A stretch of 61,151 bases of DNA, filler included, from Dugesia japonica (lineage: Eukaryota), in assembly GCA_001938525.1 (NCBI GenBank). It is 6 parts of 6 records of this genome, joined end to end, with 100 filler letters (N's around TTAATTAATTAA, not from the genome) between each part and the next. Parts side by side here need not be neighbours in the genome. Positions count along the whole stretch, not along the records: positions 28,693 to 39,110 come from MQRL01638564.1; 5 more parts are not named here. The stretch is one strand, 5' to 3'. Below are positions 11,130 to 32,219 of the stretch, piece by piece. Below the pieces are notes generated by a model that had not been told where the DNA came from, did not search any database, and saw nothing but the letters and a program-made list of their open reading frames with translations. Each line of letters starts with the position of its first letter. The stretch's first letter is position 1. The position numbers and the translations under genes are program-made.

Positions 11130-11715
11130 TTTATCTATTACAAGTAAACTCAATCATTGTATTATATAATAATCTATTATAGCACTGTAAAAATCCAAAA
11201 ATATTTTTAAATGGAAAATAACCTTCAAATTTCTTTTTAGAGTAGAGTTTCTTTCTTTTATAAAAACCAAGATTTGCATCCCATCCTTCAACATCTACAT
11301 TACCTTTATTAATATCAGGAATTTATCCAAATAATTTACCGTATTCTTTTTTACTAGCATTACTAATTGTAATTAAATTCAACATTATTGATGCTGTTTC
11401 TGGGTCATTAATTATTTCTACATCTGAAGACCCTAAAGTTAATCTCATGGATTTAAATAAACTTGAAAACCAATTATCTCCCAAAGTTATTTTATCTTTA
11501 TGATCATCTGTAACATTAATCTCTATTTTAAAATATAATATTGAATTACAAATGTCTAATGGATTTGAAGATTGTAAAGATTGAAAAATAATAGTTCAAG
11601 AAGACATTAAATTAGTTATTATTTTAGCTGAAGGTAAAATTCTTAAAACATCATTTTTCAAAAATAAATGTTGAAAATTAAGATTATAATCAAGATCAAG
11701 TTTTGTTGTAACCAT
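11130..11715 (-). pseudogene. Polinton/adintovirus-like major capsid protein, copy C (5' part; stops and a frameshift; absent from the ORF track)
   Basis: Manual translation MVTTKLDLDYNLNF..FQSLQSSNPLDICNSIIYF..KITLGDNWFSSLFKSMRLTLGSSDVEIINDP..KKEYGKLFG*IPDINKG..FGFLQCYNRLLYNT aligns colinearly with the capsid genes at 26397-27001 and 29388-30793. Confidence 0.85.
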
Positions 11716-11939
11716 TTTCTTTACTAATAATATAAGCAAAAGTTATTTGCAGATGTATTTGCATTTGCGTTGGCATTCGCATTTCTATTTTTCAAAAACA
11801 AAAATTTAAAAACCAAGACACCAACCCAAGTAGTGGGTAAATGGCGTCTTCCCGTTGGTTTTACAATTTATTTTCACAATAAAAAATTTTATATTGTTAT
11901 TTTTTTCCCAGGTATTAAACATGTATTTGAAAAATAAGA

Positions 11940-13320
11940 GCAGAACCTTGAAGGGAAAACGCTAATTGCCCACTACTCACGGAAAAAGTCATAAATTATC
12001 TGAAAAACGAATATGATATGGAAGAGTTAAGAGAAACTGTGTCAAAAGTAATTAAAGAATGTACAGCGTGCCAAATGAACAAAGTAACAACAATTAGAAT
12101 AAAGGAGGAAACTATAAAATTAGAGGCTAATGAAATAGTTGAGAGTATTTATATTGATATATGTGGGCCTTTCCAAGAAACTGTAGGAAGAAAAAGATAT
12201 AAATGTCCCATAATAGATAAATTTAGCAGATACATATGCTTAACAGCCCTAGTTAAACAAGATGAGGAATCAATAAAGAAAATAATTATGGATAAATGGA
12301 TACTAAGATTTGGTGCTCCCAAAGAGATACATGTAGATTGTTTGAAGATCTTCAAAACAAAAGCCTTCAAAGAGATGAAAGATTTAATGAATATAACGAT
12401 TTGCTTCTCAAGTACATATCATCATAATACCAACGGAATAATAGAACGTTAATTCAGAACGATCAGAAATTAAATCAATGCAACATAAAAAGATAAAAAG
12501 AATAAAAATTCGACAGAGTTAATACCAAAAATCAAATATACTCTCAATGCAACAAGCCGGAAGACTTTGAGTGTTAGTTCAGCAGAAGTGATATTCGGTA
12601 AGAAGATACATAGAGAACCATGGTTCAATAACGGAGAAAAGAAAGAAGAATCTGAAGAGTTGACAACAACAAAGATACATTTTCAAGTTGGAGACTAGGT
12701 GCTAATTAAGGCAGAAAACAGATCAAAAGACAAAGAAAGATACACAGGTCCGTACGAGGTGATAAAACAAATGCTTGAAAGACGATACCTGCTGAAGAGT
12801 TCAGAAGGGAAGATGATTGAAAAAAATGTGGAAAATTAAAAAAAAATTTAAAGAGGCGGATGTGAGTATCGATTTATGGATTTCAAATATCTGAGATTTT
12901 TTAATTTTTATTTATAATATTAAAATTGGTTTTTTGAAACTTTTAAAATATAAAACAGGTTTTTTAAAATAAAAATTAATTGAATAAACTCTATATATTA
13001 TATTATGTTGAATTAAAAAATTATAAAAATTATTTTGTAAAAATTAGGTATAAAAATAATTAAATATATATAATAAAGGTATTTTAAAATTAAAGTCGAT
13101 ATTTTATATTAGGTTAAATTATAAAATTATAAAAGTTATTTAGTAAAATTAGGTTTAAAATAATTAAAGATAAAGTAAAATAAAAGTATTTTGGAATTTA
13201 AAAAATCAATATTTTTGAAAAATATTTATTAGGATTTTTAAGATTATTTGTTTGAATATTGTGATTTGTGCTTTATCATTTTTCATTTTAATAAAAGACT
13301 TGTAATAATCAATAAACAAT
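11940..13320 (+). mobile_element. Gypsy integrase remnant, PPT and AT-rich 3' LTR
   Basis: CTACQ zinc motif, IDICGP, IDKFSRY, HVD, YHHNTNGIIER, GPYEV. PPT AAAGAGGCGGA then TGTGAG at 12861. Confidence 0.75.
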
Positions 13321-19409: not shown

Positions 19410-22388
19410 TCGAACCACTCCTCAGCATTCTGACTAATAATAAAATAGTATTCCATATAATAAAATTGCTGCTGGGTTACACTTTGATTAATTCCTATAT
19501 CTTCTTAGTCAAAAAATTCCATAGCGATAGGTTACCGAAAGAATTTTCTGCATTCATTAATAATGAATTTTAGAGTGGCAGATCACAGATAATTATTTGA
19601 TAAAGAACCTCCACGAATGTTGATAGATAGACTTTAGAATTCTGAGTTAATATTAACAAGTCATCGAAAGAGTAGATAAACCCAGTTACTTAATAGTGTG
19701 TGTGCAATAGTTAAATGAGTCAACTCATGTACTAACTAAAATTTTGTTTTTCGTGACAACATGCTAAGAGAGTGTGTCACACACCAACTCGCGTTGCATT
19801 ATCGCCAACAGCTAGAAGAAAAAAATCCCTAGGTAACCGTCACACGCGCAATTTGAAAATGTAATAAAAATAGCAATAGATAATTAATACCAGAAATGAT
19901 AAAATGGGGAATCTTATAAACTTCAGTATTAATAATAGTTCATCTAAGGACGTAATAAATTACGGCCCTCTTGACTAGTTACCTCAATAAATTTAGTTCT
20001 GAGTTATAAATATTGCGTTGAAAATTAATAGCTTTTCTTACGCCAATTTTATCTGACTAAGTGGGATTCATCCATAAAAAAAATATTTCTCCATGAATTA
20101 TCCGCGAAACAAATAGCGTAAATTAGTAATCATATAATATATCCGACCATATAACTTTCAATTGAAGGTCTGGTCCGTGAATTATCACTGAAATTTTATT
20201 TTTTTTTTCATTTAGCTTATGTCAGACGAATTACGAATTATCCTGAGAACGATAAGGAAGCAACGACGAGCAACCCGCCTAAAGCAATTAATTGTCCATT
20301 ACTTAACGAGAGGTTGAGTAGAGCACCCCGACGAAACTGACCTTCAGTGTTTTATTGAGATGTTTCCCCTAAAACCTAAGGTGGATATCGATGAGGAATA
20401 GCCATTTTAGCTAAAACCATGGTGAATTCCTTTCTTTAAAGAGTACTTAGACTAATTGTGATGTTATACTTCGAGTATGAATTAAAATCCGTGCTTTATT
20501 TTAATTTATTTTTTTTTAAAATATAATCTATTTAATTACCTAAATGCATTTCACTCTGATTAAATAAAAAATTCATTAGTTGTTATTATAGGAAATAAAC
20601 AAAACAATTATAGAATATAGATGGGAGGTATGTTTAGATGTTTATTCAGGAAGAACAACCTTTAAAAGATATCAAAACCCATATTACCGTGATGCCGGTG
20701 TTTTGGTTGATCACACCAATTTGCCTACCGAAATAGCAGATAATGAAAGACAATGGGACGCAACAGAACGGGCTGCTTATTATCATTGGCGTGGCCCGAG
20801 AAGAGACCGGGTCGCTACCCCACCAGCACCCCTTTCATTCAAACGGTCAGCAGAAATTCCATTGATAGAACGTGTGTGGATTGACGGCTCCTCGTCAGTG
20901 GGCCTTACTAGAAATCTCTTACCTCCCACATCGCAATTGACGTCCTTCATCCAAAATAATCTGTGGGGCGTTTGAAATGCGCTGGTTAGCAATAATGATG
21001 AAAACACTGAAGAAGAACACACTGTGTCGGTGTGAACTTTCTCTTTTGATTTAAGACCTAGAATAGAATGCTTTTCTCTCTGCTATTTTCGAAATTTAAT
21101 AATTAATGTCTTACAAAATTTGGTCTTATTCTCACACTATATCATTGTTAAGAACCGTAAAAATTACGCTATTTATATTTTAGTGCACTCATCGTTGAAT
21201 CGAACACAGGCCCCGACCAAAAAATTACGCGAAGATAGTGAAGATAAAAAAATTACTTGGGACCTGTATAAATTGGCTAAGAGACGGTGGGAAGCCGAGA
21301 TCGCAACCGCCAACGCTAAAATAAAGCGGTACAAAACGAAGTGCACAAATGTTCGCGAGAAAATGAAGGCGGTGCAAGATCAAGAGAGGGTCTTGGAAGG
21401 CCCAGGTAGAATCGTTCGCCGAGATTATCCGGTCCAGTCATGACCGTCAGAATAAACTGGTCAAAGATATCCTCATCTTAAAAACGAAATCTTATCTGGA
21501 ACCCCTTATGATTGATAAGGGCACCCAGATCAAACCTAATCCCCGTGTTTGATCACTATAAAAAATATATAAAATTTTGTACATTTTGATCTTGAGTTTC
21601 TATTNNNNNNNNNNNNNNNNNNNNNNNNNNNNNNNNNNNNNNNNNNNNNNNNNNTTTTGATCTTGAGTTTCTATTTCTGTTTACTTCGTTGATAATAAAT
21701 TCGTTAATATTGACATTCATTATACTCTATTAATGTTCGTAAATTTTAGTGCCACGAATTACCTTCCCGAACAGCCTTAGAAGATGTCACCGCATTCTGC
21801 GTCGCCTCCTTCTTGAAAGGCACCTGAAACGCAAAGCCGACAAAGCCTTATTAAAGCACCTCGCCCAACGGGACCAGTTTGATTAAAAAACTGGATTTAA
21901 TCATAAAGAAACAAAACAACCTTGCCATGCAGACAAAGGCTTTAGAAACAGAAAATAAACAATTATTGCAACGGAAAATTGAATTCCTAAAGCAATATAT
22001 TGCTGACTTATCACGTCAAATAGGTAATCCAAATGTAACGCAATGGGATGAGGACGATGACCTTGCAGCGTTCAATTTTGTATTGACTGAACCTGACCAA
22101 TGGCTAGATCCAGGAGCGCTGGATTTACTTCGAATAATTTTCTTTTAATAAAATATCGGTACTCAGAAATGCAAATCATTTTTCTTTTAATAATAACTAT
22201 AAGGGAAAAGTCAATGAACCCAAATATAAAGGTTTATTGGTGTTTACCTTCCATTAAGAGTAAGGTCAACCACCATAAACTGAAAACCTACCACAGGGAC
22301 GATAGGGTAAATTCTTGAAAGGGTTCCCCTGAGGGCTTTTTTTCCCAGCCACCTTTTCGTATCACTCGAATCAGGTGGGACCCCAACA
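19410..22388. mobile_element. Probable terminal part of a large LTR-type element carrying a decayed spliced + strand gene; interrupts the viral minor capsid gene
   Basis: Ends in ...GGGACCCCAACA (TGTTGGGG on minus) exactly where minor-capsid similarity stops. GC-richer exon-like blocks follow polypyrimidine-AG acceptors near 20216, 20591, 21184 and 21749. No RT or integrase is visible in this part. Confidence 0.4.
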
Positions 22389-22537
22389 GTAACATTAAAA
22401 ATAATATTATAACAACTAAAAGTTAATAAAGCCATTTCATAATCAGAGTCTAATTCTATTGGAAATTTTAAATTAACTTTAAAATCTGATCCCGGAGGGC
22501 CCCCTTCTTTACCAACAACTAAAAATTGATGAGACAT
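22389..22537 (-). pseudogene. Minor capsid (penton-like) protein, N-terminus only
   Basis: SDFKVNLKFPIELDSDYEMALLTFSCYNIIFNVT resembles the N-terminal pattern (F..PIEL...YE.AL.....YN...N.T) of Polinton-type minor capsids; truncated by an insertion at 22388. Confidence 0.7.
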
Positions 22538-22539
22538 TT

Positions 22540-23332
22540 TATCTATAAAAATACTTATTCTTATATATACATATTTTTCTCTGGTAAGTAGTTTTTGCTT
22601 TAATAATTCTTTACAAACTGATTTAATTTCTTGTTCTAAATTATTATGACCAGCTTTAACAGCAGAAATTTATAATGTTAATCTTTCAAATAAAGAAACT
22701 GGGTCATGGGGCTCTCTGGGATTAGGATTTAATCCTTCTCCTTTAATAGGAGTTTCTTTTATAGGAGTTTCTTTTTCAGAATTTTCACTAATAGATAAAG
22801 TCTTTTTCCTAGTTAAAAATTTATAATATTTATTATTGTGATGAAATATAATATTAAATTTATTTAAATAAATATCAATTGCTTCTGGATCATTACTTCC
22901 ATTTCCTAAAATTAAATTCATTAATTCTTCAGAATAAGGAATTNNNNNNNNNNNNNNNNNNNNNNNNNNNTTTCCATCTTCTTCAAATAAATATATTTCT
23001 GTTAGAGAACCTCTAAGATTAGGATAAATTATTTTTTGAAAGTTTTTACCATTAATAACGTCTGTTAAAAATATTGGTATAACTGTTGGTGTTTTTAAAA
23101 AATCAATATTAAAATTATTATGTGAATAAAATGGTTTTCTTTTCTCAAAAGGGTTAGAAGATTTATCCAAGTTTTCAATTGCTTTAATTGTGGGTTGTTG
23201 TTGAATAGTTAAATCAGCTTGTAAATTTCTTGATTCAATTACATTACCACTAAATAAATTATTATAATCATCTCGTGCTTTAATTAATTCTTTTAAAAGT
23301 TTTATTCTTTCTGTTACTTGTACAGTATCCAT
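22540..23332 (-). pseudogene. Conserved Polinton-type uncharacterised protein (premature stop at 22670)
   Basis: C-terminal IKGEGL..DPVSLFERLTL*ISAVKAGHNNLEQEIKSVCKELL continues in frame past the stop. It resembles the DP..L.ERL.L......AG.....EI....EL motif of the gene that precedes the minor capsid in related elements. Confidence 0.65.
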
Positions 23333-23858
23333 TTTTAAAAGAATTTACATAGGGTTTTAAATATAATCCATTTCTTTTTATTTTAACTTTAATTCCATTT
23401 TTAAAGTTTTTAGTAATCATTATTAATTCAGGATTGTCTAAACTATTTTTCAAATATTTATGAATTGAACTTCCTTGATATGGTTTTAAGTAAAGTCCTG
23501 ATCCAGAACTTGTTTTATTTGTTTCTAACTTATTTACTTCTAATTTATTTTCAAGTTCCTTTTTCTGTAATTCAACTAATTCAATTTCTTTTTGTTTTTT
23601 AATAGCAACTCTAGAATTACTAACTGTACTTGCAATTCCAGTGGCAAAACCAGCAGTAGAAGCTAAATCAGCTATAATTGCTGGTATTGCTGCTAGAAAA
23701 GCAAATCTACCTTCATGTATTTTTTTTGTTGCTATTTTCTTTTTTATTTCTTCTTTAACTTGTTTACCAATCCAATAGTTTTTTCCATTAATTTTAATAG
23801 ATTTAGATTTATTTGAATTTACCAAATTAATTAATTCTTGTTCTGAAACAGAAGACAT
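23280..23858 (-). CDS. Putative virion core/membrane-active protein
   Basis: Basic N-terminus, hydrophobic helix FAFLAAIPAIIADLASTAGFATGIASTV after HEGR, coiled coil, and duplicated GLYLKPY motif (GSGLYLKPY, RNGLYLKPY). Confidence 0.6.
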   Translation of the reverse strand: MSSVSEQELINLVNSNKSKSIKINGKNYWIGKQVKEEIKKKIATKKIHEGRFAFLAAIPAIIADLASTAGFATGIASTVSNSRVAIKKQKEIELVELQKKELENKLEVNKLETNKTSSGSGLYLKPYQGSSIHKYLKNSLDNPELIMITKNFKNGIKVKIKRNGLYLKPYVNSFKNGYCTSNRKNKTFKRIN

Positions 23859-23979
23859 TTTATTTACTTGTAATTTGAAAATAATTCAATTTCTCTTCTC
23901 CTCTCAATTTAAGAGGTAGGAGGATTTTAAAGAGTAAGGAGGATTTTCAAAGAGGTGAAATCCTAGAGAGTCTTATAAA

Positions 23980-24733
23980 TTACTCTTCTTTCTCCTCCTC
24001 AAATAAATTATCAATTAATTCATCTGCTTCTCTATCTAAATAGAAATAATTATATTTAGTTTTCCAATGTAAATTAACTTCATAATCATATTCCATTTTA
24101 CTAGAAAAAATGTTACTAAACAAATCATAATAAACATTATCTTTATCAGTTTTGTTTAATTTAAAAAATATAAAACAATTCGAATTATTTCGAATAGACT
24201 TTTTATCCAAATAAAAATATGTTTGAGAAATGTAAATTACATTACAATTAACATGTCTTCCTCTAGTAAAATAACTTTTCTGAATTTNNNNNNNNNNNNN
24301 NNNNNNNNNNNNNNNNNNNNNNNNNNNNNNNNNNNNNNNNNNNNNNNNNNNNNNNNNNNNNNNNNNNNNNNNNNNNNNNNNNNNNNNNNNNNNNNNNNTT
24401 AAAAGAATACTTTTTTAAAAACCATTGAATTACTTCAAATGGTGTTATTAAAGAATTAGGAATTATATTTTGGTGTTCAAAAATAAAAATTATATCTTCT
24501 TTTGTTAATCAATTTTCAAAACCATGATATAATAATTGTAATTCAAATTGGTTTATAGTTGTTGAATAAATTATTAAATTATCATAATCTAAAAACCCTG
24601 GAGTTAATAACATTTTCATTAATAAAACATTTTTACCTGAGCCTGAAGAACCAATTATTAATAATCTAAAATTAGATGGAAAGATTTTATTATTAAAGAT
24701 GTTTTTATTTTTACTCCAGATCAATTGAGACAT
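23980..24733 (-). pseudogene. A32/FtsK-HerA family DNA-packaging ATPase (internal stop and N gap)
   Basis: FRLLIIGSSGSGK Walker A; after the gap FTRGRHVNCNVIYISQTYFYLDKKSIRNNSNCFIFFK, the GRH..SQ.Y....IR.N signature of Polinton/NCLDV packaging ATPases. Confidence 0.9.
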
Positions 24734-24873
24734 TTTTTTTTAATAAAAAATCAAAGAATTCTTTAATCCTCATAAATAATTTTCTTTATTACACAATCTA
24801 ATACATTTGCACTAAACAATTCCAAACAAGTATTAGATTTTCCAAAATATTGGGTGAATATTTTAATTATTTC

Positions 24874-25101
24874 TTATGTTGTTTCATTAAACCTTTCTTT
24901 ACCATTATATTTATTTTTAAAATAATCTGAAACTTGTTGTGGACAAACAGGTTTGAGTTCTTTAAGAGTTTCTTTTAATTCTTCTTTCAGGATTTCTTTT
25001 GTAATTTCTTTTAATTTATTTTTTGGTATTTCATTTGAAGTTTCTTTTATAGTTTCTTTTAAAGATTGATTTAAAATAAAATTAAAAGAGTTATCATCCA
25101 T
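24874..25101 (-). CDS. Small hypothetical viral protein with LKE repeats
   Basis: ATG ORF packed between integrase and ATPase on the same strand; may be frameshifted at the 3' end. Confidence 0.45.
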   Translation of the reverse strand: MDDNSFNFILNQSLKETIKETSNEIPKNKLKEITKEILKEELKETLKELKPVCPQQVSDYFKNKYNGKERFNETT

Positions 25102-25122
25102 TTAATTTATTAATTTTAAATA

Positions 25123-26322
25123 TTATAAAACAGTTTTCTGTAATTCATTATCATAAAATCTACCTAGAATTTTTTCATTGTCTAAATTAGTAATTCCATA
25201 AGTAAAAGGTTTTGTTTTATAAACTCGAGTAACTAGAAATATTTCATTTGTCCATTTAGCTGTTAAACCTTTTTCAAACTTATATTTATATTTAAAGATT
25301 CTAACTTTATCACCAATTTTAAATTTCTGTTTAAATATTATATTATCATTTTCAGTATTATGTTGATTTATTATTTCTTTAATTTAATCTGGATTTTCAC
25401 TAGCTTGTTTTGGAGTTGTTTTTATAGAACTATGAATTGTATTATTATAATAATTTACAATTTTATCTATAAAGTTTTTATCCCAGTTTAGATTATCAAC
25501 TAGAGTAAAATGTTTAAATAATTTATTTTTAAATGTTTTATTAAATCTTTCTATAACAACTGCTTTCCCCTTGTTTTCAGGTGAATACAAATTAATATTA
25601 TTTTCTTTACAAAAAGATTTAAATAATCTATTATAAAATTCACTTCCTTTATCAACCCATAAATTATTTGGAATTTTATTATTTTTTTCAATTATATTTT
25701 CAAATGAATTTGTTATTGATTAACCTGTTTTATTATTACATATTTCTATAAATGCATATCGAGAATATAAATCAATAACTGTTAGTATTATTTTCTTATT
25801 ATGAAAGATTAAATCTGCAGACCAAGTTTCATCAATTTCATTAATTATTTTTAATATTTTTATCAATGGGAAAAGTCTTCGCTTCTTTCAGACTTAAACT
25901 AGCACCCAAAATAATTTTACCTTTCATTGCTAATTTTACTAAACTTCTTTTAATTTTTTCATTAATACTAGGATTAGAAATATTATTCAAGTCATGAATT
26001 AAATTAATATCAGCTAAATGTCTATCTTTTAAATCTTCTGATTTATAAGATAAATCCTGTTTTAAAGCAGCTGCATCAACTCTATTTATTGGTTCTTCTC
26101 CAGGTTTTGGGTTATTATTTTCATCTAATCTTAAATCTAATCTTGTTCCAGGTCCAGTGTAATTGTGTTTAAATAAATGTCTTTCTCCTGGATATTTTTC
26201 CAAAGTAAATGGTTTTAAAATTGCACTTGTTAATTTAGAAGATTGTAAATCACCTCCGGTTTTATTACATATTTTATAATGTCTAGCTTGATTTTTTCTA
26301 AGTAATATTTTTTTACAATTTA
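25123..26322 (-). pseudogene. Zn-finger + parvovirus-type phospholipase A2 + Polinton-type retroviral integrase, copy A
   Basis: CKKILLRKNQARHYKIC; HNYTGPGT..PINRVDAAALKQDLSY (Ca loop YxGPG; catalytic HD mutated to QD); DETWSADL, ILTVIDLYSRYA, LWVDKGSEFYN, KAVVIERFNKT (D,D,E), FKIGDKVRI, FEKG..KWTNEIF, GRFYDNELQK*. The start lies in an N gap. Confidence 0.9.
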
Positions 26323-26396
26323 NNNNNNNNNNNNNNNNNNNNNNNNNNNNNNNNNNNNNNNNNNNNNNNNNNNNNNNNNNNNNNNNNNNNNNNNNT

Positions 26397-27001
26397 TTAT
26401 TTTAAATCTAATCCTTTTTTATTTTCAATCATTACTATTTTACAATTTTCTAATTTCATTTCTATATGTTTTTCTTCTAAAATACACCAATAAATATTTC
26501 CTTTAAAATCAGTATCTTCAGTTATATGTAAAGTTATAATTACATTATTAATATTTAGTCTATCGTCTTGAGCACTTACATCAAAACAAAAGAATGGGTA
26601 CAAAATCCTGATAATTCTCCATATTCTTTTTTATAAGATAAACCAGTTGTTATAAAATTTAACGTTGTAGATATAACTCATGGTTCTTTAATTATTTCTA
26701 CATCTGTGGAACCTAAACTTAATTTCATTAATTTAAATAAAATAGGAAACCAATTATTTTCTAAAGTTATTTTTTCATAATGTTTATCTGTTTCACCAAA
26801 TTCTAGAGTTATGTAATAATATAACATTGAATTACAAATATCTAAAGGAGTTGTAGTTAGTAAAGATTGAAAAGTTNTATNTCCTGAAGACATTAAATTA
26901 TTAATTGAACCAGAAGTTGGTTNAATCTATAAAACATCATTTTTTAATAACAAAAGATTAAAATTAATATTATTATCTATATTTAGTTTTGTTGTTTCCA
27001 T
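26397..27001 (-). pseudogene. Double jelly-roll major capsid protein, copy A (large internal deletion)
   Basis: METTKLNIDNN..PLDICNSMLYY..ITLENNWFPILF..LGSTDVEII..KEYGELSG joined directly to YPFFCFDVSAQDD..YWCILEEKH; homologous to copy B. Confidence 0.85.
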
Positions 27002-27103
27002 TTTACTAAGATAAAATTTAAAATCTTTTTTGAATTCCTCAAATTACAAAGAAAAACTCGAAAACTCATAATACAATTAATAAAAGCAAATAAGCATATA
27101 ACG

Positions 27104-27293
27104 AGTAATGGAGAAATGAGGGATTTACACCATGGAATTATCATTTTAATATGCATTGGCATTAACAATTAGCAATTAACTATATTAAACTTTATTTTCC
27201 TGATAACAAACTTTGTTTTAGTACTAACGTTTATGCCTTTTGCTCGCTTTAGAGTGTACCCCCATGGCGTAAATCCCTCATTTTTCCATTACT
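27104..27293. repeat. 32-bp inverted repeat (27104-27135 / 27262-27293, 2 mismatches) upstream of the capsid gene
   Basis: AGTAATGGAGAAATGAGGGATTTACACCATGG vs CCATGGCGTAAATCCCTCATTTTTCCATTACT. Confidence 0.85.
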
Positions 27294-28592: not shown

Positions 28593-28692
28593 NNNNNNNN
28601 NNNNNNNNNNNNNNNNNNNNNNNNNNNNNNNNNNNNTTAATTAATTAANNNNNNNNNNNNNNNNNNNNNNNNNNNNNNNNNNNNNNNNNNNN
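28593..28692. other. Artificial contig-joining linker
   Basis: 44 N + TTAATTAATTAA + 44 N. Confidence 0.95.
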
Positions 28693-29383
28693 GTAAAGAT
28701 CTATAACTGTTAATATTACATTTTTACCTTTTCGTTCAATTCCTTGAAATATTAAATCTGCAGACCCAGTGTCATCTTTTTCATGTACAATTACTTTTCT
28801 AAAATGTTTTGGTTTCCTATAATCTTTATGAAGTTCTTTACTTTTAATTTCATTTGGATTAATTTCATCATCAGAATATTCTTTTGTAATTATACTCTTT
28901 CTATTTAAATTAGTAGTGGCATTCGCTTCACGAAGGCTTTTACAAATAATAATTTTACCTTTCATAGCTAATTTTACAAGAGCTCTTTGAAATTTTTCTG
29001 CTAATGTTGGATTTTGAATATTATTTAAATCAGAGTATTAAATTTACATCTGCAATATGTCGACCTCGAATATCTTCTGAATTATAAGCAATGTCATGTT
29101 TTAAAGATGCAGCATCAACTTGATTAATTGGTTCTTCTCCAGGTTTTGGTTCTGAATTTTCATCGAGTCTAATATCTAATCTTGTTCCTGGTCCAGTGTA
29201 ATTATGTTTAAATAAATGTCTTTCGCCAGGATACTTTTCCCAAGTAAATGGTTTTAAAATTGCAGATGTTAAATTTGAATTTTGTAGATCACCTCCTTTA
29301 ATATTTATACACAAATCTAAATGTCTTGATTTATTTTTCTTTAAAATTATTTTACCACAATCTTCATATATAAAGCGAGACAT
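28693..29383 (-). pseudogene. Zn-finger + PLA2 + integrase N-terminus, copy B (one frameshift at ~29032)
   Basis: CGKIILKKNKSRHLDLC; HNYTGPGT..VDAASLKHDIAY (intact HD); after the frameshift LVKLAMKGKII..KELHKDYRKPKHFRKVIVH..SADL..ILTVIDLY in one frame. Confidence 0.9.
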
Positions 29384-29387
29384 TTAT

Positions 29388-30793
29388 TTAACATTTAATA
29401 TCAAGCCCTCTCACATTTTCTACCATAACAATTTTACTATTTGCTAATTTCATTTCAACATGTTTTTCTTCAAGAATACACCAATAAACAATTGCTTTAA
29501 AATTTGGATCTTTTTTAATTTTAAGTGTAATATCAACATTATTAATATTCATTTTATCATCGTGTGCGCTAGCATCGAAACAAAACATTGGATATAAATT
29601 ACCAAAATCTAAAAATGATATTTGAGGTTCTGTTAAAAATTCATGACAACATTTACATATTCCAAATAAGGATAACCCATTTCATTATTTTTCATATCAA
29701 ATTGACATTCATTAGCTGGATAATTACAATTGTTTAATTGTAATTGTATACCTTTAATAAAATAATTTTTTGTTACATCTTTTGCTTCGACTTGTAGTTT
29801 TTGTAATTTTCTGTATAAATAAATTATTATTAATTTGATATGAAATTTCTATTTCTTTAAAACAAATTAAAATATATCTAGGTTGATATGCAAGGCTNNN
29901 NNNNNNNNNNNNNNNNNNNNNNNNNNNNNNNNNNNNNNNNNNNNNNNNNNNNNNNNNNNNNNNNNNNNNNNNNNNNNNNNNNNNNNNNNNTATTCTTTCT
30001 AACATAAATAATTCTGCTTTTGGTAATAATCTATATTCTGGAATGTGAAAATCAAGTGTTAATAACTTTAATGACGCAGTTGCATCTTTGTCTCCATAAA
30101 ATAATAGTTTATCTTCAATTTGACGATTGCATCTAATCTCTATCGCTGTGTTATATAAAAGTCGATTATAATTTTGCATAAAACCAAATAAGTTTTTTAA
30201 TTGNNNNNNNNNNNNNNNNNNNNNNNNNNNNNNNNNNNNNNNNNNNNNNNNNNTCGATTATAATTTTGCATAAAACCAAATAAGTTTTTTAATTGAAAGA
30301 ATCCTTCAAATTTATTTGTTGCATAAATTTTTTTTCTATTATAATATCCCATGTTGCAATCCCAACTTTTTACTTCAGTATCTCCTTTATTTATATCTAG
30401 TAACCAACCTGACAATTGTCCATATTCTTTTTTCCAGGTTTCTGTTGTAGTTATTAAATTTAACATTGTAGATATTACACCTGGATTATTTATTGTTTCG
30501 ACTTCTGACGAACCAAGGAATAATCTTATTGAATTAAATAAACTTGGGAAGAAATTATTTTCCAAAGTTATTTTATCTTTNAANGCTTCAGGAATTGTAA
30601 TCTCAATTGTAAAGTATAATAATGAATTACAAATATCAAGTGGGTTTGTTGATTGAAGAGATTAAAAAACTATGTTACCATTTGCATTTAATTTGTTTAT
30701 TGTTCCAGATGACGGTGGAATTACAAGTGTATCATTTTTTATTGCTGCATGTGAAAATTCAATATTATTATCTAAATCTATCATCGTATTCAT
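29388..30793 (-). pseudogene. Double jelly-roll major capsid protein, copy B (near full length; stops and gaps)
   Basis: MNTMIDLDNN..LENNFFPSLFNSIRLFLGSSEVETINNPGVISTM..QLKNLFGFMQNYNRLLYN..PRYILICFK..YPMFCFDAS..VDITLKI..YWCILEEK; pattern of Polinton/adintovirus hexon-like capsids. Confidence 0.85.
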
Positions 30794-30954
30794 TTATTAA
30801 ATATAACATTTAAAACTAATGAAATAATAAAAATAATAAAACTAAATATTAAAAAATAAATAAAATTTTTTTGAAGTTTAATTTTTGAATTTAATCTTTC
30901 AACAATATTTAAAAAACTTATTAAATCTTTTTTTGGTATTTCTATAGACATTTA

Positions 30955-31332
30955 TTAAAGCAATTGTTTAGATTTATTCAATGTTATTTTTATACGATTT
31001 AATATTTTTTCATCATCACTTTGCTTTAATTTTTTTACTTTTTCATCTCTCATAATTTCTGCTAATTTTTCTTTATTAAATTCATTTGATTTTTCCATTA
31101 CAGATTTTAAAACACCATTTTCTATTTTTAAATCATCATTTTCATCTATCAAATCAAGAACTGTAGTTTTCATTACTTCTACTTCCCTTTTATTTAGTCT
31201 ATATGAAACAAACGTTTCTTTTATTATTTGTTTTTGTTCAGCTGGTGAAGCAATTATGGCTAAATTATATTTATCTAATAATTCTTTTTTAAAATCTTCA
31301 TTTTTTAAAATCTCACTTGTAAACGAATCCAT
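30955..31332 (-). CDS. Hypothetical viral protein (coiled-coil), specific to copy B
   Basis: Intact 125-aa ATG ORF, co-oriented and packed with the viral genes. Confidence 0.55.
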   Translation of the reverse strand: MDSFTSEILKNEDFKKELLDKYNLAIIASPAEQKQIIKETFVSYRLNKREVEVMKTTVLDLIDENDDLKIENGVLKSVMEKSNEFNKEKLAEIMRDEKVKKLKQSDDEKILNRIKITLNKSKQLL

Positions 31333-31367
31333 TTTATCAACAATAAATTTAACTAATTTCTAAATCA

Positions 31368-31874
31368 TTAATTCCTTTTGTTATAATAATAACTAAAATC
31401 GTCTTCAATTTTAGTTTCAATTTTTCCACCAGTTGCATTAATTATTCTAATTCTTTTTGGTGTAGTATTACTATTCATCATTTCATTTCTTTTTTCTGTT
31501 AATGTTATTTTTGTTTTTTGTTCAGGAATGAATTCAAAGTTTTTTGTTTTAACATCATAAAAATAATTTCCATATTGATCATTTATAAAAGTATTTGTTT
31601 TTTCATTATAATAATATTTTAGTCTGTGATATTTTTTTCTTTCACATTTTAAATTTAATTCTCTTAATGTTTTATTTAAAGCTACGATTGAAACTCCAAT
31701 TTCGTTTGTTATAATGTGATCTGTCATATTTGGATTTTTCTTTTTAACTTCTTTATATCTTGAAACTAAACAAATCTTTTCTGATTTAAGAAATAAATTA
31801 GAATCAAAACTATTTGCACACTTTATACTTCTTTCAACATTTTCACAAGTTAATTTTTCATATTCTAGGGCCAT
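31368..31874 (-). CDS. Hypothetical viral protein with possible helix-turn-helix, specific to copy B
   Basis: Intact ORF from MALEYE; NPNMTDHIITNEIGVSIVALNKTLREL has HTH-like spacing. Confidence 0.55.
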   Translation of the reverse strand: MALEYEKLTCENVERSIKCANSFDSNLFLKSEKICLVSRYKEVKKKNPNMTDHIITNEIGVSIVALNKTLRELNLKCERKKYHRLKYYYNEKTNTFINDQYGNYFYDVKTKNFEFIPEQKTKITLTEKRNEMMNSNTTPKRIRIINATGGKIETKIEDDFSYYYNKRN

Positions 31875-31924
31875 TTTTTTATAGTATTTTATTAGCACTT
31901 TGTTAACACTTTGTCTCCTCGTAA

Positions 31925-32176
31925 ATGCAATTCGACATTCGACATTTCTTGTTCGACATTTTTCGTTTTACATTTTGATGTTTTACATTTCTTGTTCGAC
32001 ATTCGACATTTTTCCTTCGGTATCGTAATTTAACATTTCTTGTTCGACATTCGACATTCGACATTTTTCCTTCGACGTTTTTCGTTTTACATTTTTTCTT
32101 CGGTATCGTAATTTAACATTTCTTGTTTTACATTTCTTGTTCGACATTCAACATTTGGCTGAGGGGTACCCCCATG
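31925..32176. repeat. Tandem array of CGACATT/TTACATT modules followed by palindrome GGGGTACCCC (32163-32172)
   Basis: Repeated TTCGACATT, TTTCTTGTTCGACA and two copies of CTTCGGTATCGTAATTTAACATTTCTTGTT. Confidence 0.85.
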
Positions 32177-32219
32177 AGTTCTTTTTGTGTTTTACCCTTT
32201 ACTTATATATATCTTAAAA

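Follow-up and report, generated by a model that had tools for sequence, protein, structure and literature searches.

A widespread in-frame fusion of a parvovirus-type phospholipase A2 and an rve-family integrase, with two broken copies in Dugesia japonica

The window analyzed here, the whole stretch of 61,151 nucleotides of Dugesia japonica DNA (GenBank assembly GCA_001938525.1), is made up of six AT-rich contigs with artificial spacers between them. Two separate contigs, both gapped draft sequences, each hold a viral gene set on the minus strand, termed copy A (~22244-27023) and copy B (28693 to ~31967); both copies are broken and incomplete. A capsid gene is followed by a fusion gene, in which a phospholipase A2 (PLA2) runs into an integrase, and copy A continues with a small ORF, an A32-like ATPase, a pX-like gene, and two ORFs. 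Identities in the list below refer to P0001, an uninterrupted natural protein of 463 aa (like all relatives in this work, a gene prediction rather than an observed protein) that carries both PF08398 (PLA2) and PF00665 (rve, E 6.5e-12).

22244..23344, minus strand: copy A downstream ORFs of 224 and 141 aa; no Pfam match above cut-off
23280..23885, minus strand: copy A putative stand-alone pX-like core protein gene, separate from PLA2 (Atlas score 0.92-0.93 to Preplasmiviricota clusters)
23980..24739, minus strand: copy A A32-like packaging ATPase, broken (Pox_A32 E 3.7e-4, a fragment at 20.5 bits against a cut-off of 22.8)
25123..25860, minus strand: copy A integrase, no chromodomain (57.4% identity to P0001 residues 210-461, E 1.8e-85)
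25841..26322, minus strand: copy A finger-PLA2 frame (PF08398 E 4.4e-9; 70.7% identity to P0001 residues 11-158)
26397..27023, minus strand: copy A major capsid protein remnant, gene start and end with the middle missing (matches copy B 29415-29598 and 30408-30815)
28593..28692, no strand: artificial contig spacer (N44, a 12-nt all-frame stop, N44) separating the copy A contig from the copy B contig
28693..29031, minus strand: copy B fusion, second frame, with the final helices of PLA2, the linker, and the beginning of the integrase (46% identity, 98% coverage to P0001)
29030..29383, minus strand: copy B fusion, first frame, with a degenerate finger, GG motif, and first part of PLA2 (PF08398 E 1.1e-7; 67.5% identity to P0001 residues 8-121)
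29388..30793, minus strand: copy B major capsid protein gene (double jelly roll), in several frames (PF21738 E 1.1e-4 and 0.024, below cut-off)
30955..31967, minus strand: copy B upstream ORFs of 134 and 199 aa; no Pfam match above cut-off

The copy B fusion gene starts with an ATG at 29383, 4 nt past the capsid-gene stop. Its finger shows three ligands, the first Cys being missing, and its PLA2 retains the YTGPG loop, the His-Asp-x-x-Tyr motif, and the second Asp, all intact. The earlier note on this DNA had placed a frameshift at ~29032, and the frame does change there, inside the PLA2 domain between 29036 and 29031; the second frame then runs, exactly as that note had read it, from LVKLAMKGKII into the integrase start (ELHK ... 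SADL ... ILTVIDLY). The near-invariant Gly that follows PLA2 in relatives is lacking, as is the Trp before the first Asp, and the integrase stops just past its first catalytic Asp because the contig ends at 28693. Against the intact P0001, the junction frame scores 84.7 bits, with 200 shuffles reaching a maximum of 22.7.

The start of the copy A gene is hidden in an N-run (26323-26395), leaving three finger ligands visible, and the PLA2 has Gln at the position of the catalytic His. This PLA2 frame also continues into LVKLAMKGKII, as had been claimed, and the integrase is out of frame with it. The break reported for this copy is real but lies at ~25886-25860; the position given for it, ~25845, is only the stop of the PLA2 frame. 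Between the end of PLA2 and the first catalytic Asp, copy A is ~30 codons shorter than copy B, and the conserved ELH segment is missing. The integrase has two internal in-frame stops, keeps D, D, and E in alignment with P0001, and ends where P0001 ends (P0001 itself has no PF00385). Both PLA2 pieces, from A and from B, exceed the Pfam cut-off for PF08398. A single-sequence fold of the copy A PLA2 frame (pLDDT 36.6) was set aside; a sequence search of solved structures with this frame gave no significant match, and Foldseek searches returned lists filled by integrases, with no PLA2 among the matches listed.

Over 412 nt of the PLA2 region, copies A and B share 78.6% identity; dN/dS there is 0.31 (85 codons) or 0.34 (28 codons); read as pairwise estimates, these values show purifying selection to have acted through most of the A/B divergence. 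Both copies are now relics. Programmed -1 frameshifting at their breaks was considered and ruled out: the breaks differ between A and B, relatives in the branch are in frame, no slippery heptamer exists at the copy A break, and the copy B break (A/T-rich heptamers at 29045 and 29029 lie beside it) falls inside a PLA2 domain that is continuous in copy A and in relatives.

The gene set of A and B is the virion module of a Polinton/Maverick-type virus. Its members are recognized at different strengths: the better PF21738 match (E 1.1e-4) is to a 71-aa fragment of the broken capsid gene, and the pX-like identity of 23280..23885 is a lead of low recognition value, with Adeno_PX on 19-20% of the members of the two matched Atlas clusters. 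The last ORF of copy A (22244-22669) we take, from resemblance and position, to be a candidate minor capsid (penton) protein, and the copy B ORFs at 30955..31967 are, by strand and spacing, probably part of the element. No protein-primed DNA polymerase B was found among 157 frames (Pfam) or by motif in these partial copies; group 2 members, as far as the available descriptions go, often have helicases in its place. Within the window and its incomplete elements, no adenain-type cysteine protease was detected by Pfam, by motif, or by tblastn with a protease candidate from elsewhere (L001, below), the last an insensitive search that also missed the window's capsid and ATPase genes. No long inverted pair that could serve as terminal repeats surrounds either copy, B being cut by the contig end.

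With an rve-family integrase bearing D-D-E, a capsid gene, and an A32-like ATPase (capsid and ATPase matches being below cut-off), the copies between them have several of the genes by which Polintons/Mavericks are recognized. PLA2X, the mark of Alpha adintoviruses (Mayetiola class), is absent, with PLA2 running into the integrase and the pX-like gene separate, as is the C-terminal chromodomain given for adintoviruses (PMC11071296), which some fused relatives carry. Overall, A and B are probably decayed integrated copies of a Polinton/Maverick-type virus, group 2-like and PLA2-bearing.

Several other features of the window were recorded. A third fragment of a major capsid gene (11173-11718, plus strand; 69-74% identity to A and B) lies on another contig and adjoins a retroelement-type integrase at 11952-12452; Pfam matches in the window include remnants of retroelement-type integrase and RNase H as well as a DDE_1 transposase, in keeping with a eukaryotic genome. 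Upstream of the copy A capsid remnant, an inverted repeat at 27104-27293 (two 32-nt arms of 94% complementarity, separated by 126 nt), which may be a small non-autonomous transposon, is followed by 40-50 nt tandem repeats to ~27710. A short-repeat array at 31930-32200, upstream of the first ORF of copy B, may mark a subterminal region or an origin. Three ORFs of 97-135 aa (20592-22148, plus strand) lie downstream of copy A and run opposite to it; they have no Pfam match, and the first two are in a stretch of higher GC.

Intact relatives of the fusion are numerous. P0001 was the one match among 207 candidates when the copy B junction frame was searched among longer proteins. Its PLA2 region, searched among proteins of 254-811 aa, yielded 59 matches: 36 with both Pfam domains, two more with the motifs, three fragments, and 18 gene models of Lottia gigantea. 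Its integrase region yielded 714 matches, of which the best 120 include 78 with a PLA2 piece and 73 with an HDxxY. The copy A PLA2 frame, with no length limit, retrieved 639 representatives; profiles detect an integrase part in 24 of the top 150, and a good many of the rest are short or stop at the integrase start. The earlier note had suggested a search for PLA2 and rve in one protein, and this architecture is present in 103 of 304 pooled relatives, which form 62 groups at 70%, 38 at 60%, and 18 at 50% identity (named relatives are from Lottia gigantea and Oculina patagonica). Three Atlas clusters (184, 111, and 72 members) have both domains on 78-99% of their members; at scores of 0.82-0.85 these are leads, mostly assigned to Preplasmiviricota by their few labelled members. 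In quick trees built from the two halves separately, A and B are nearest to P0001 (set support 97 for PLA2 and 80 for the integrase), within a finger-bearing subclade. The side of the integrase tree (FastTree) that holds the window's branch comprises 57 fused rows, five that are N-truncated or unclear, and no split row; a conserved stop followed by a separate ATG between the two domains is not seen there. The PLA2-integrase fusion is real and widespread, and many intact single-ORF relatives, with both halves nearest to P0001 in separate trees, make it almost certain that the ancestral gene was one ORF, as the note had supposed.

The 18 Lottia gigantea models begin with a viral PLA2, and two of them run from PLA2 into the integrase start and then diverge; they look like mis-spliced models over endogenous virus copies. 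A scan of bacterial and archaeal genomes encountered one distant Polinton-like gene cluster (L001, 1669-11667) on a contig filed in a bacterial MAG, probably a eukaryotic contamination of the bin. L001 contains an integrase and, by our reading, candidate protease, capsid, and ATPase genes; its integrase is unfused and ATG-started, and no PLA2 ORF was noticed. Phage records gave no match.

Judged by their residues, both enzymes look alive in the family. Among the 103 fusions, PLA2 has its His in 102, Asp in 100, Tyr in 103, and second Asp in 103 (with G69 included, these positions are kept in 98-103), and the integrase has D in 102, D in 100, and E in 99. P0001 is modeled as separate domains (mean pLDDT 78, pTM 0.46) with low-confidence segments at 30-48, 184-189, and 196-206. 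Residues 208-463 match the fold of a foamy-virus integrase (Z 21.1, rmsd 3.7, 236 aligned), and residues 37-158 weakly match rice PLA2 (Z 7.1, rmsd 4.8, 100 aligned), a middling level. The zinc finger, which had been counted as a part of the fusion, is present in degenerate or partly hidden form in both window copies but is a subclade addition (12 of 103 relatives) and not a core member; zf-U1 matches two of six finger-bearing relatives scanned (E 5e-4 and 7e-4, below cut-off), and that the finger binds nucleic acid is a guess. Between finger and PLA2, P0009 and P0011 have repeated short units, each ending in GG, a pattern consistent with multiplied protease sites.

In these natural relatives, Gly motifs flank PLA2 on both sides. 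A near-invariant Lys ends the last PLA2 helix, and four residues on there is a Gly in 99 of 103 fusions. Directly after PLA2, GxG occurs in 77 and GG in 15 (92 of 103 in total, leaving 11 with no motif); as background, 17 of 848 glycines in the integrase part have a GG/GxG-type follower. In both window copies this motif is degenerate. On the N-terminal side of PLA2, GG|D is strict in 32 of 103 and occurs as variants in 23, and 22 proteins start at that very point. The mavirus protease, as characterized in the accessible text of PMC6048507, cleaves at GG|X and GX|G but spares some GxG sites.

PLA2 is not the only partner of such integrases. Five of the 120 nearest integrases (P0274, P0284, P0309, P0323, and P0328) have an adenain-type protease as N-terminal partner, fused in frame to a chromodomain-bearing Polinton integrase. 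These partners have His, Asp, and Gln-Cys motifs and are similar to the L001 protease candidate (E 9e-7 to 5e-4), and Peptidase_C5 matches three of the five, below cut-off. In each of the five, GG or GxG lies no more than 22 aa from the integrase start, a motif seen in 9 of 1,372 background windows. The five lie in one branch and are not independent, amounting to about one event; two clusters of protease fusions have 215 and 54 members. In P0104, a close PLA2 relative, there is by our reading a pX-like tail with several GG motifs.

Since the motif stays before the integrase when the partner changes, and since both partners belong to virion-cargo classes, we prefer a packaged, cleaved precursor: the integrase is probably synthesized in one chain with a virion-cargo enzyme, taken into the particle, and then cut free, as the motifs and the analogy with mavirus suggest. 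The gene encodes, within a virion module, an optional U1-like finger, GG, a parvovirus-type PLA2, G(G/xG), and an rve integrase. Its precursor would be made with the capsid genes and loaded into particles via the cargo domain; a maturation protease of the adenain family would cut the Gly motifs and free PLA2 and integrase; at entry, PLA2 would attack the endosomal membrane in the manner of parvoviruses; and the co-delivered integrase would insert the incoming genome with no need for prior viral gene expression. The note's proposal of a protease-processed, packaged polyprotein agrees with the GG/GxG motif and the mavirus analogy; no protease gene was found in the window. Its further suggestion, that the fusion couples membrane penetration with integration, we would rather put as packaging of both enzymes together in a fixed ratio: PLA2 can give way to a protease, and what the fusions have in common is attachment to virion cargo, not to the lipase itself.

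Two enzymes might instead remain in one uncleaved protein, with PLA2 staying on in the slot of the retroviral N-terminal domain and the Gly motif marking the end of the last PLA2 helix; the whole protein would be packaged and travel with the genome, and its target might be the endosome or the nuclear envelope. We regard this as unlikely, yet it accounts for several observations. Linkers are ≤3 aa long in 18 of 101 fusions, but they range up to ~50 aa, which speaks against a fixed interface. The post-PLA2 Gly motif also ends 55 of 144 PLA2 proteins with no detected integrase (many of them fragments) and may therefore belong to the PLA2 fold; against this, GG and GxG, the two mavirus site types, alternate at a single position, and this motif also stands ahead of the integrase in the protease fusions. 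Lys occupies P4 in 61 of 99 cases (the others being mostly hydrophobic or Ala), and such a basic P4 would suit a protein that is not cut; adenovirus sites have a hydrophobic P4, and the mavirus motifs, in the sections available, are given with no P4 rule (PMC6048507). The lack of a visible protease in the window also fits, as does the foamy-virus integrase match, which starts at residue 208 and leaves the N-terminal slot to PLA2.

Less probable still is that the fusion serves expression only, with adjacent genes on a polycistronic late message joined for translation and stoichiometry and with the integrase acting in the producer cell (intragenomic spread). The other side of the integrase tree, which is largely chromodomain-bearing and mixed in state, bears on this: with 11 unclear rows set aside, the label changes between fused and split at least eight times. 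The coral-type branch (P0260-P0297 and P0341-P0379) has both PLA2 fusions and 316-aa calls among integrases that are nearly identical; of those at least 90% identical, three are long, 10 have 316-319 aa, and two are fragments (15 listed of 106). Such side-by-side fused and apparently split forms would favor a role in expression, but the first residue of the 316-aa calls falls at a position that is Leu in fused relatives (and still Leu in one source), so they appear to lack an ATG start and are perhaps not separate genes; two calls reach into a Lys-rich run. To judge from these predicted proteins, the split forms may be decayed fusions or recoded ones. Lys-Asn dipeptides, taken as a trace of slippery sites in short PLA2 tails, were uninformative (5 of 27). 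It also counts against a role in expression that both partners, PLA2 and protease, are of classes found or proposed in virions. Accident, in which frameshifts in dead copies joined two neighboring genes, suits the broken state of both window copies on gapped draft contigs, and slips in A-rich runs (inferred from proteins) could explain some coral-type joins, but it is highly improbable, and effectively refuted for the window's branch, given the diversity of the 103 uninterrupted proteins, the three Atlas clusters, and a Met between the domains in only 14 of 101 fusions.

The packaged, cleaved precursor admits a broader and distinctly more tentative extension. In a large part of the Polinton radiation, the integrase could be the tail of a virion precursor, not a gene standing by itself: it would be joined in frame to PLA2 or the maturation protease and set free at a Gly site, with the chromodomain-bearing coral-type elements, whose apparently separate integrase calls begin at a Leu codon behind a Lys-rich run, reaching the integrase by recoding (frameshift or splice). 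If true, DNA viruses would have a counterpart of Gag-Pol, and there would be genetic evidence for delivery of the Polinton integrase in infectious particles.

That Polintons have PLA2 genes, with a proposed role in entry, is already known from the literature in the parts available. The PLA2-integrase fusion is apparently undescribed so far: the accessible portions of PMC8502044, PMC3671162, PMC5803895, PMC11161782, PMC6048507, PMC11071296, PMC12567637, and PMC11296320 describe no PLA2-integrase or protease-integrase fusion (a figure label or database entry could already show one), nor do those of PMC4642659, PMC7805220, PMC11131425, PMC4028283, PMC12220804, 10.1101/2023.08.22.554363, and 10.64898/2026.06.19.733378, subscription papers and Repbase being outside the scope of this survey. 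Automatic Atlas cluster names already list both domains. Annotation pipelines that name such a gene "integrase" or "phospholipase" miss half of it in a large group of elements. A conserved fusion of integrase and virion-cargo enzyme with protease-type sites at the joint is comparative evidence for a packaged integrase and predicts that natural intact proteins have two activities and are cut at one position, and that particles contain integrase peptides with a defined N terminus.

Among known systems, retroviral Gag-Pol offers one likeness: its integrase is the C-terminal part of a precursor that also contains virion proteins and the protease and is packaged and cleaved free; in the mechanism proposed here, the integrase would likewise ride on a virion protein. 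Gag-Pol, however, belongs to RNA viruses and involves an aspartic protease and an HHCC N-terminal domain, whereas the fusion belongs to a dsDNA virus, with a precursor of two or three domains and a protease presumed to be of the cysteine type. Mavirus virions, in the portions of Born 2018 (PMC6048507) available, contain the integrase MV02, the cleaved hydrolase MV13, and the protease. Integrase as virion cargo, a cut hydrolase, and a GG|X / GX|G protease are the points of likeness with the mechanism proposed here; mavirus differs in that the genes are separate, the hydrolase is of the alpha/beta type and not a PLA2, and the integrase is not fused. Closest in gene content are the group 2 Polintons/Mavericks and the Alpha adintoviruses with PLA2X (Starrett 2021, PMC8502044; Bellas preprint, 10.64898/2026.06.19.733378), which, as far as the accessible text of these sources goes, share the double-jelly-roll capsid, A32 ATPase, rve integrase, pX-like core protein, and a parvovirus-type PLA2 proposed for entry. 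In Alpha adintoviruses, PLA2 is a separate gene fused to pX, whereas in the relics pX is separate and PLA2 is fused to the integrase; the adintovirus integrase, in the description available (PMC11071296), typically has a chromodomain, and that of the window's branch does not. Parvoviruses have the same domain family and motifs in the VP1-unique PLA2 (PF08398), with a proposed role in endosomal escape in the sections available (PMC4642659); there PLA2 is tethered to a capsid protein, and in the fusion described here, to an integrase.
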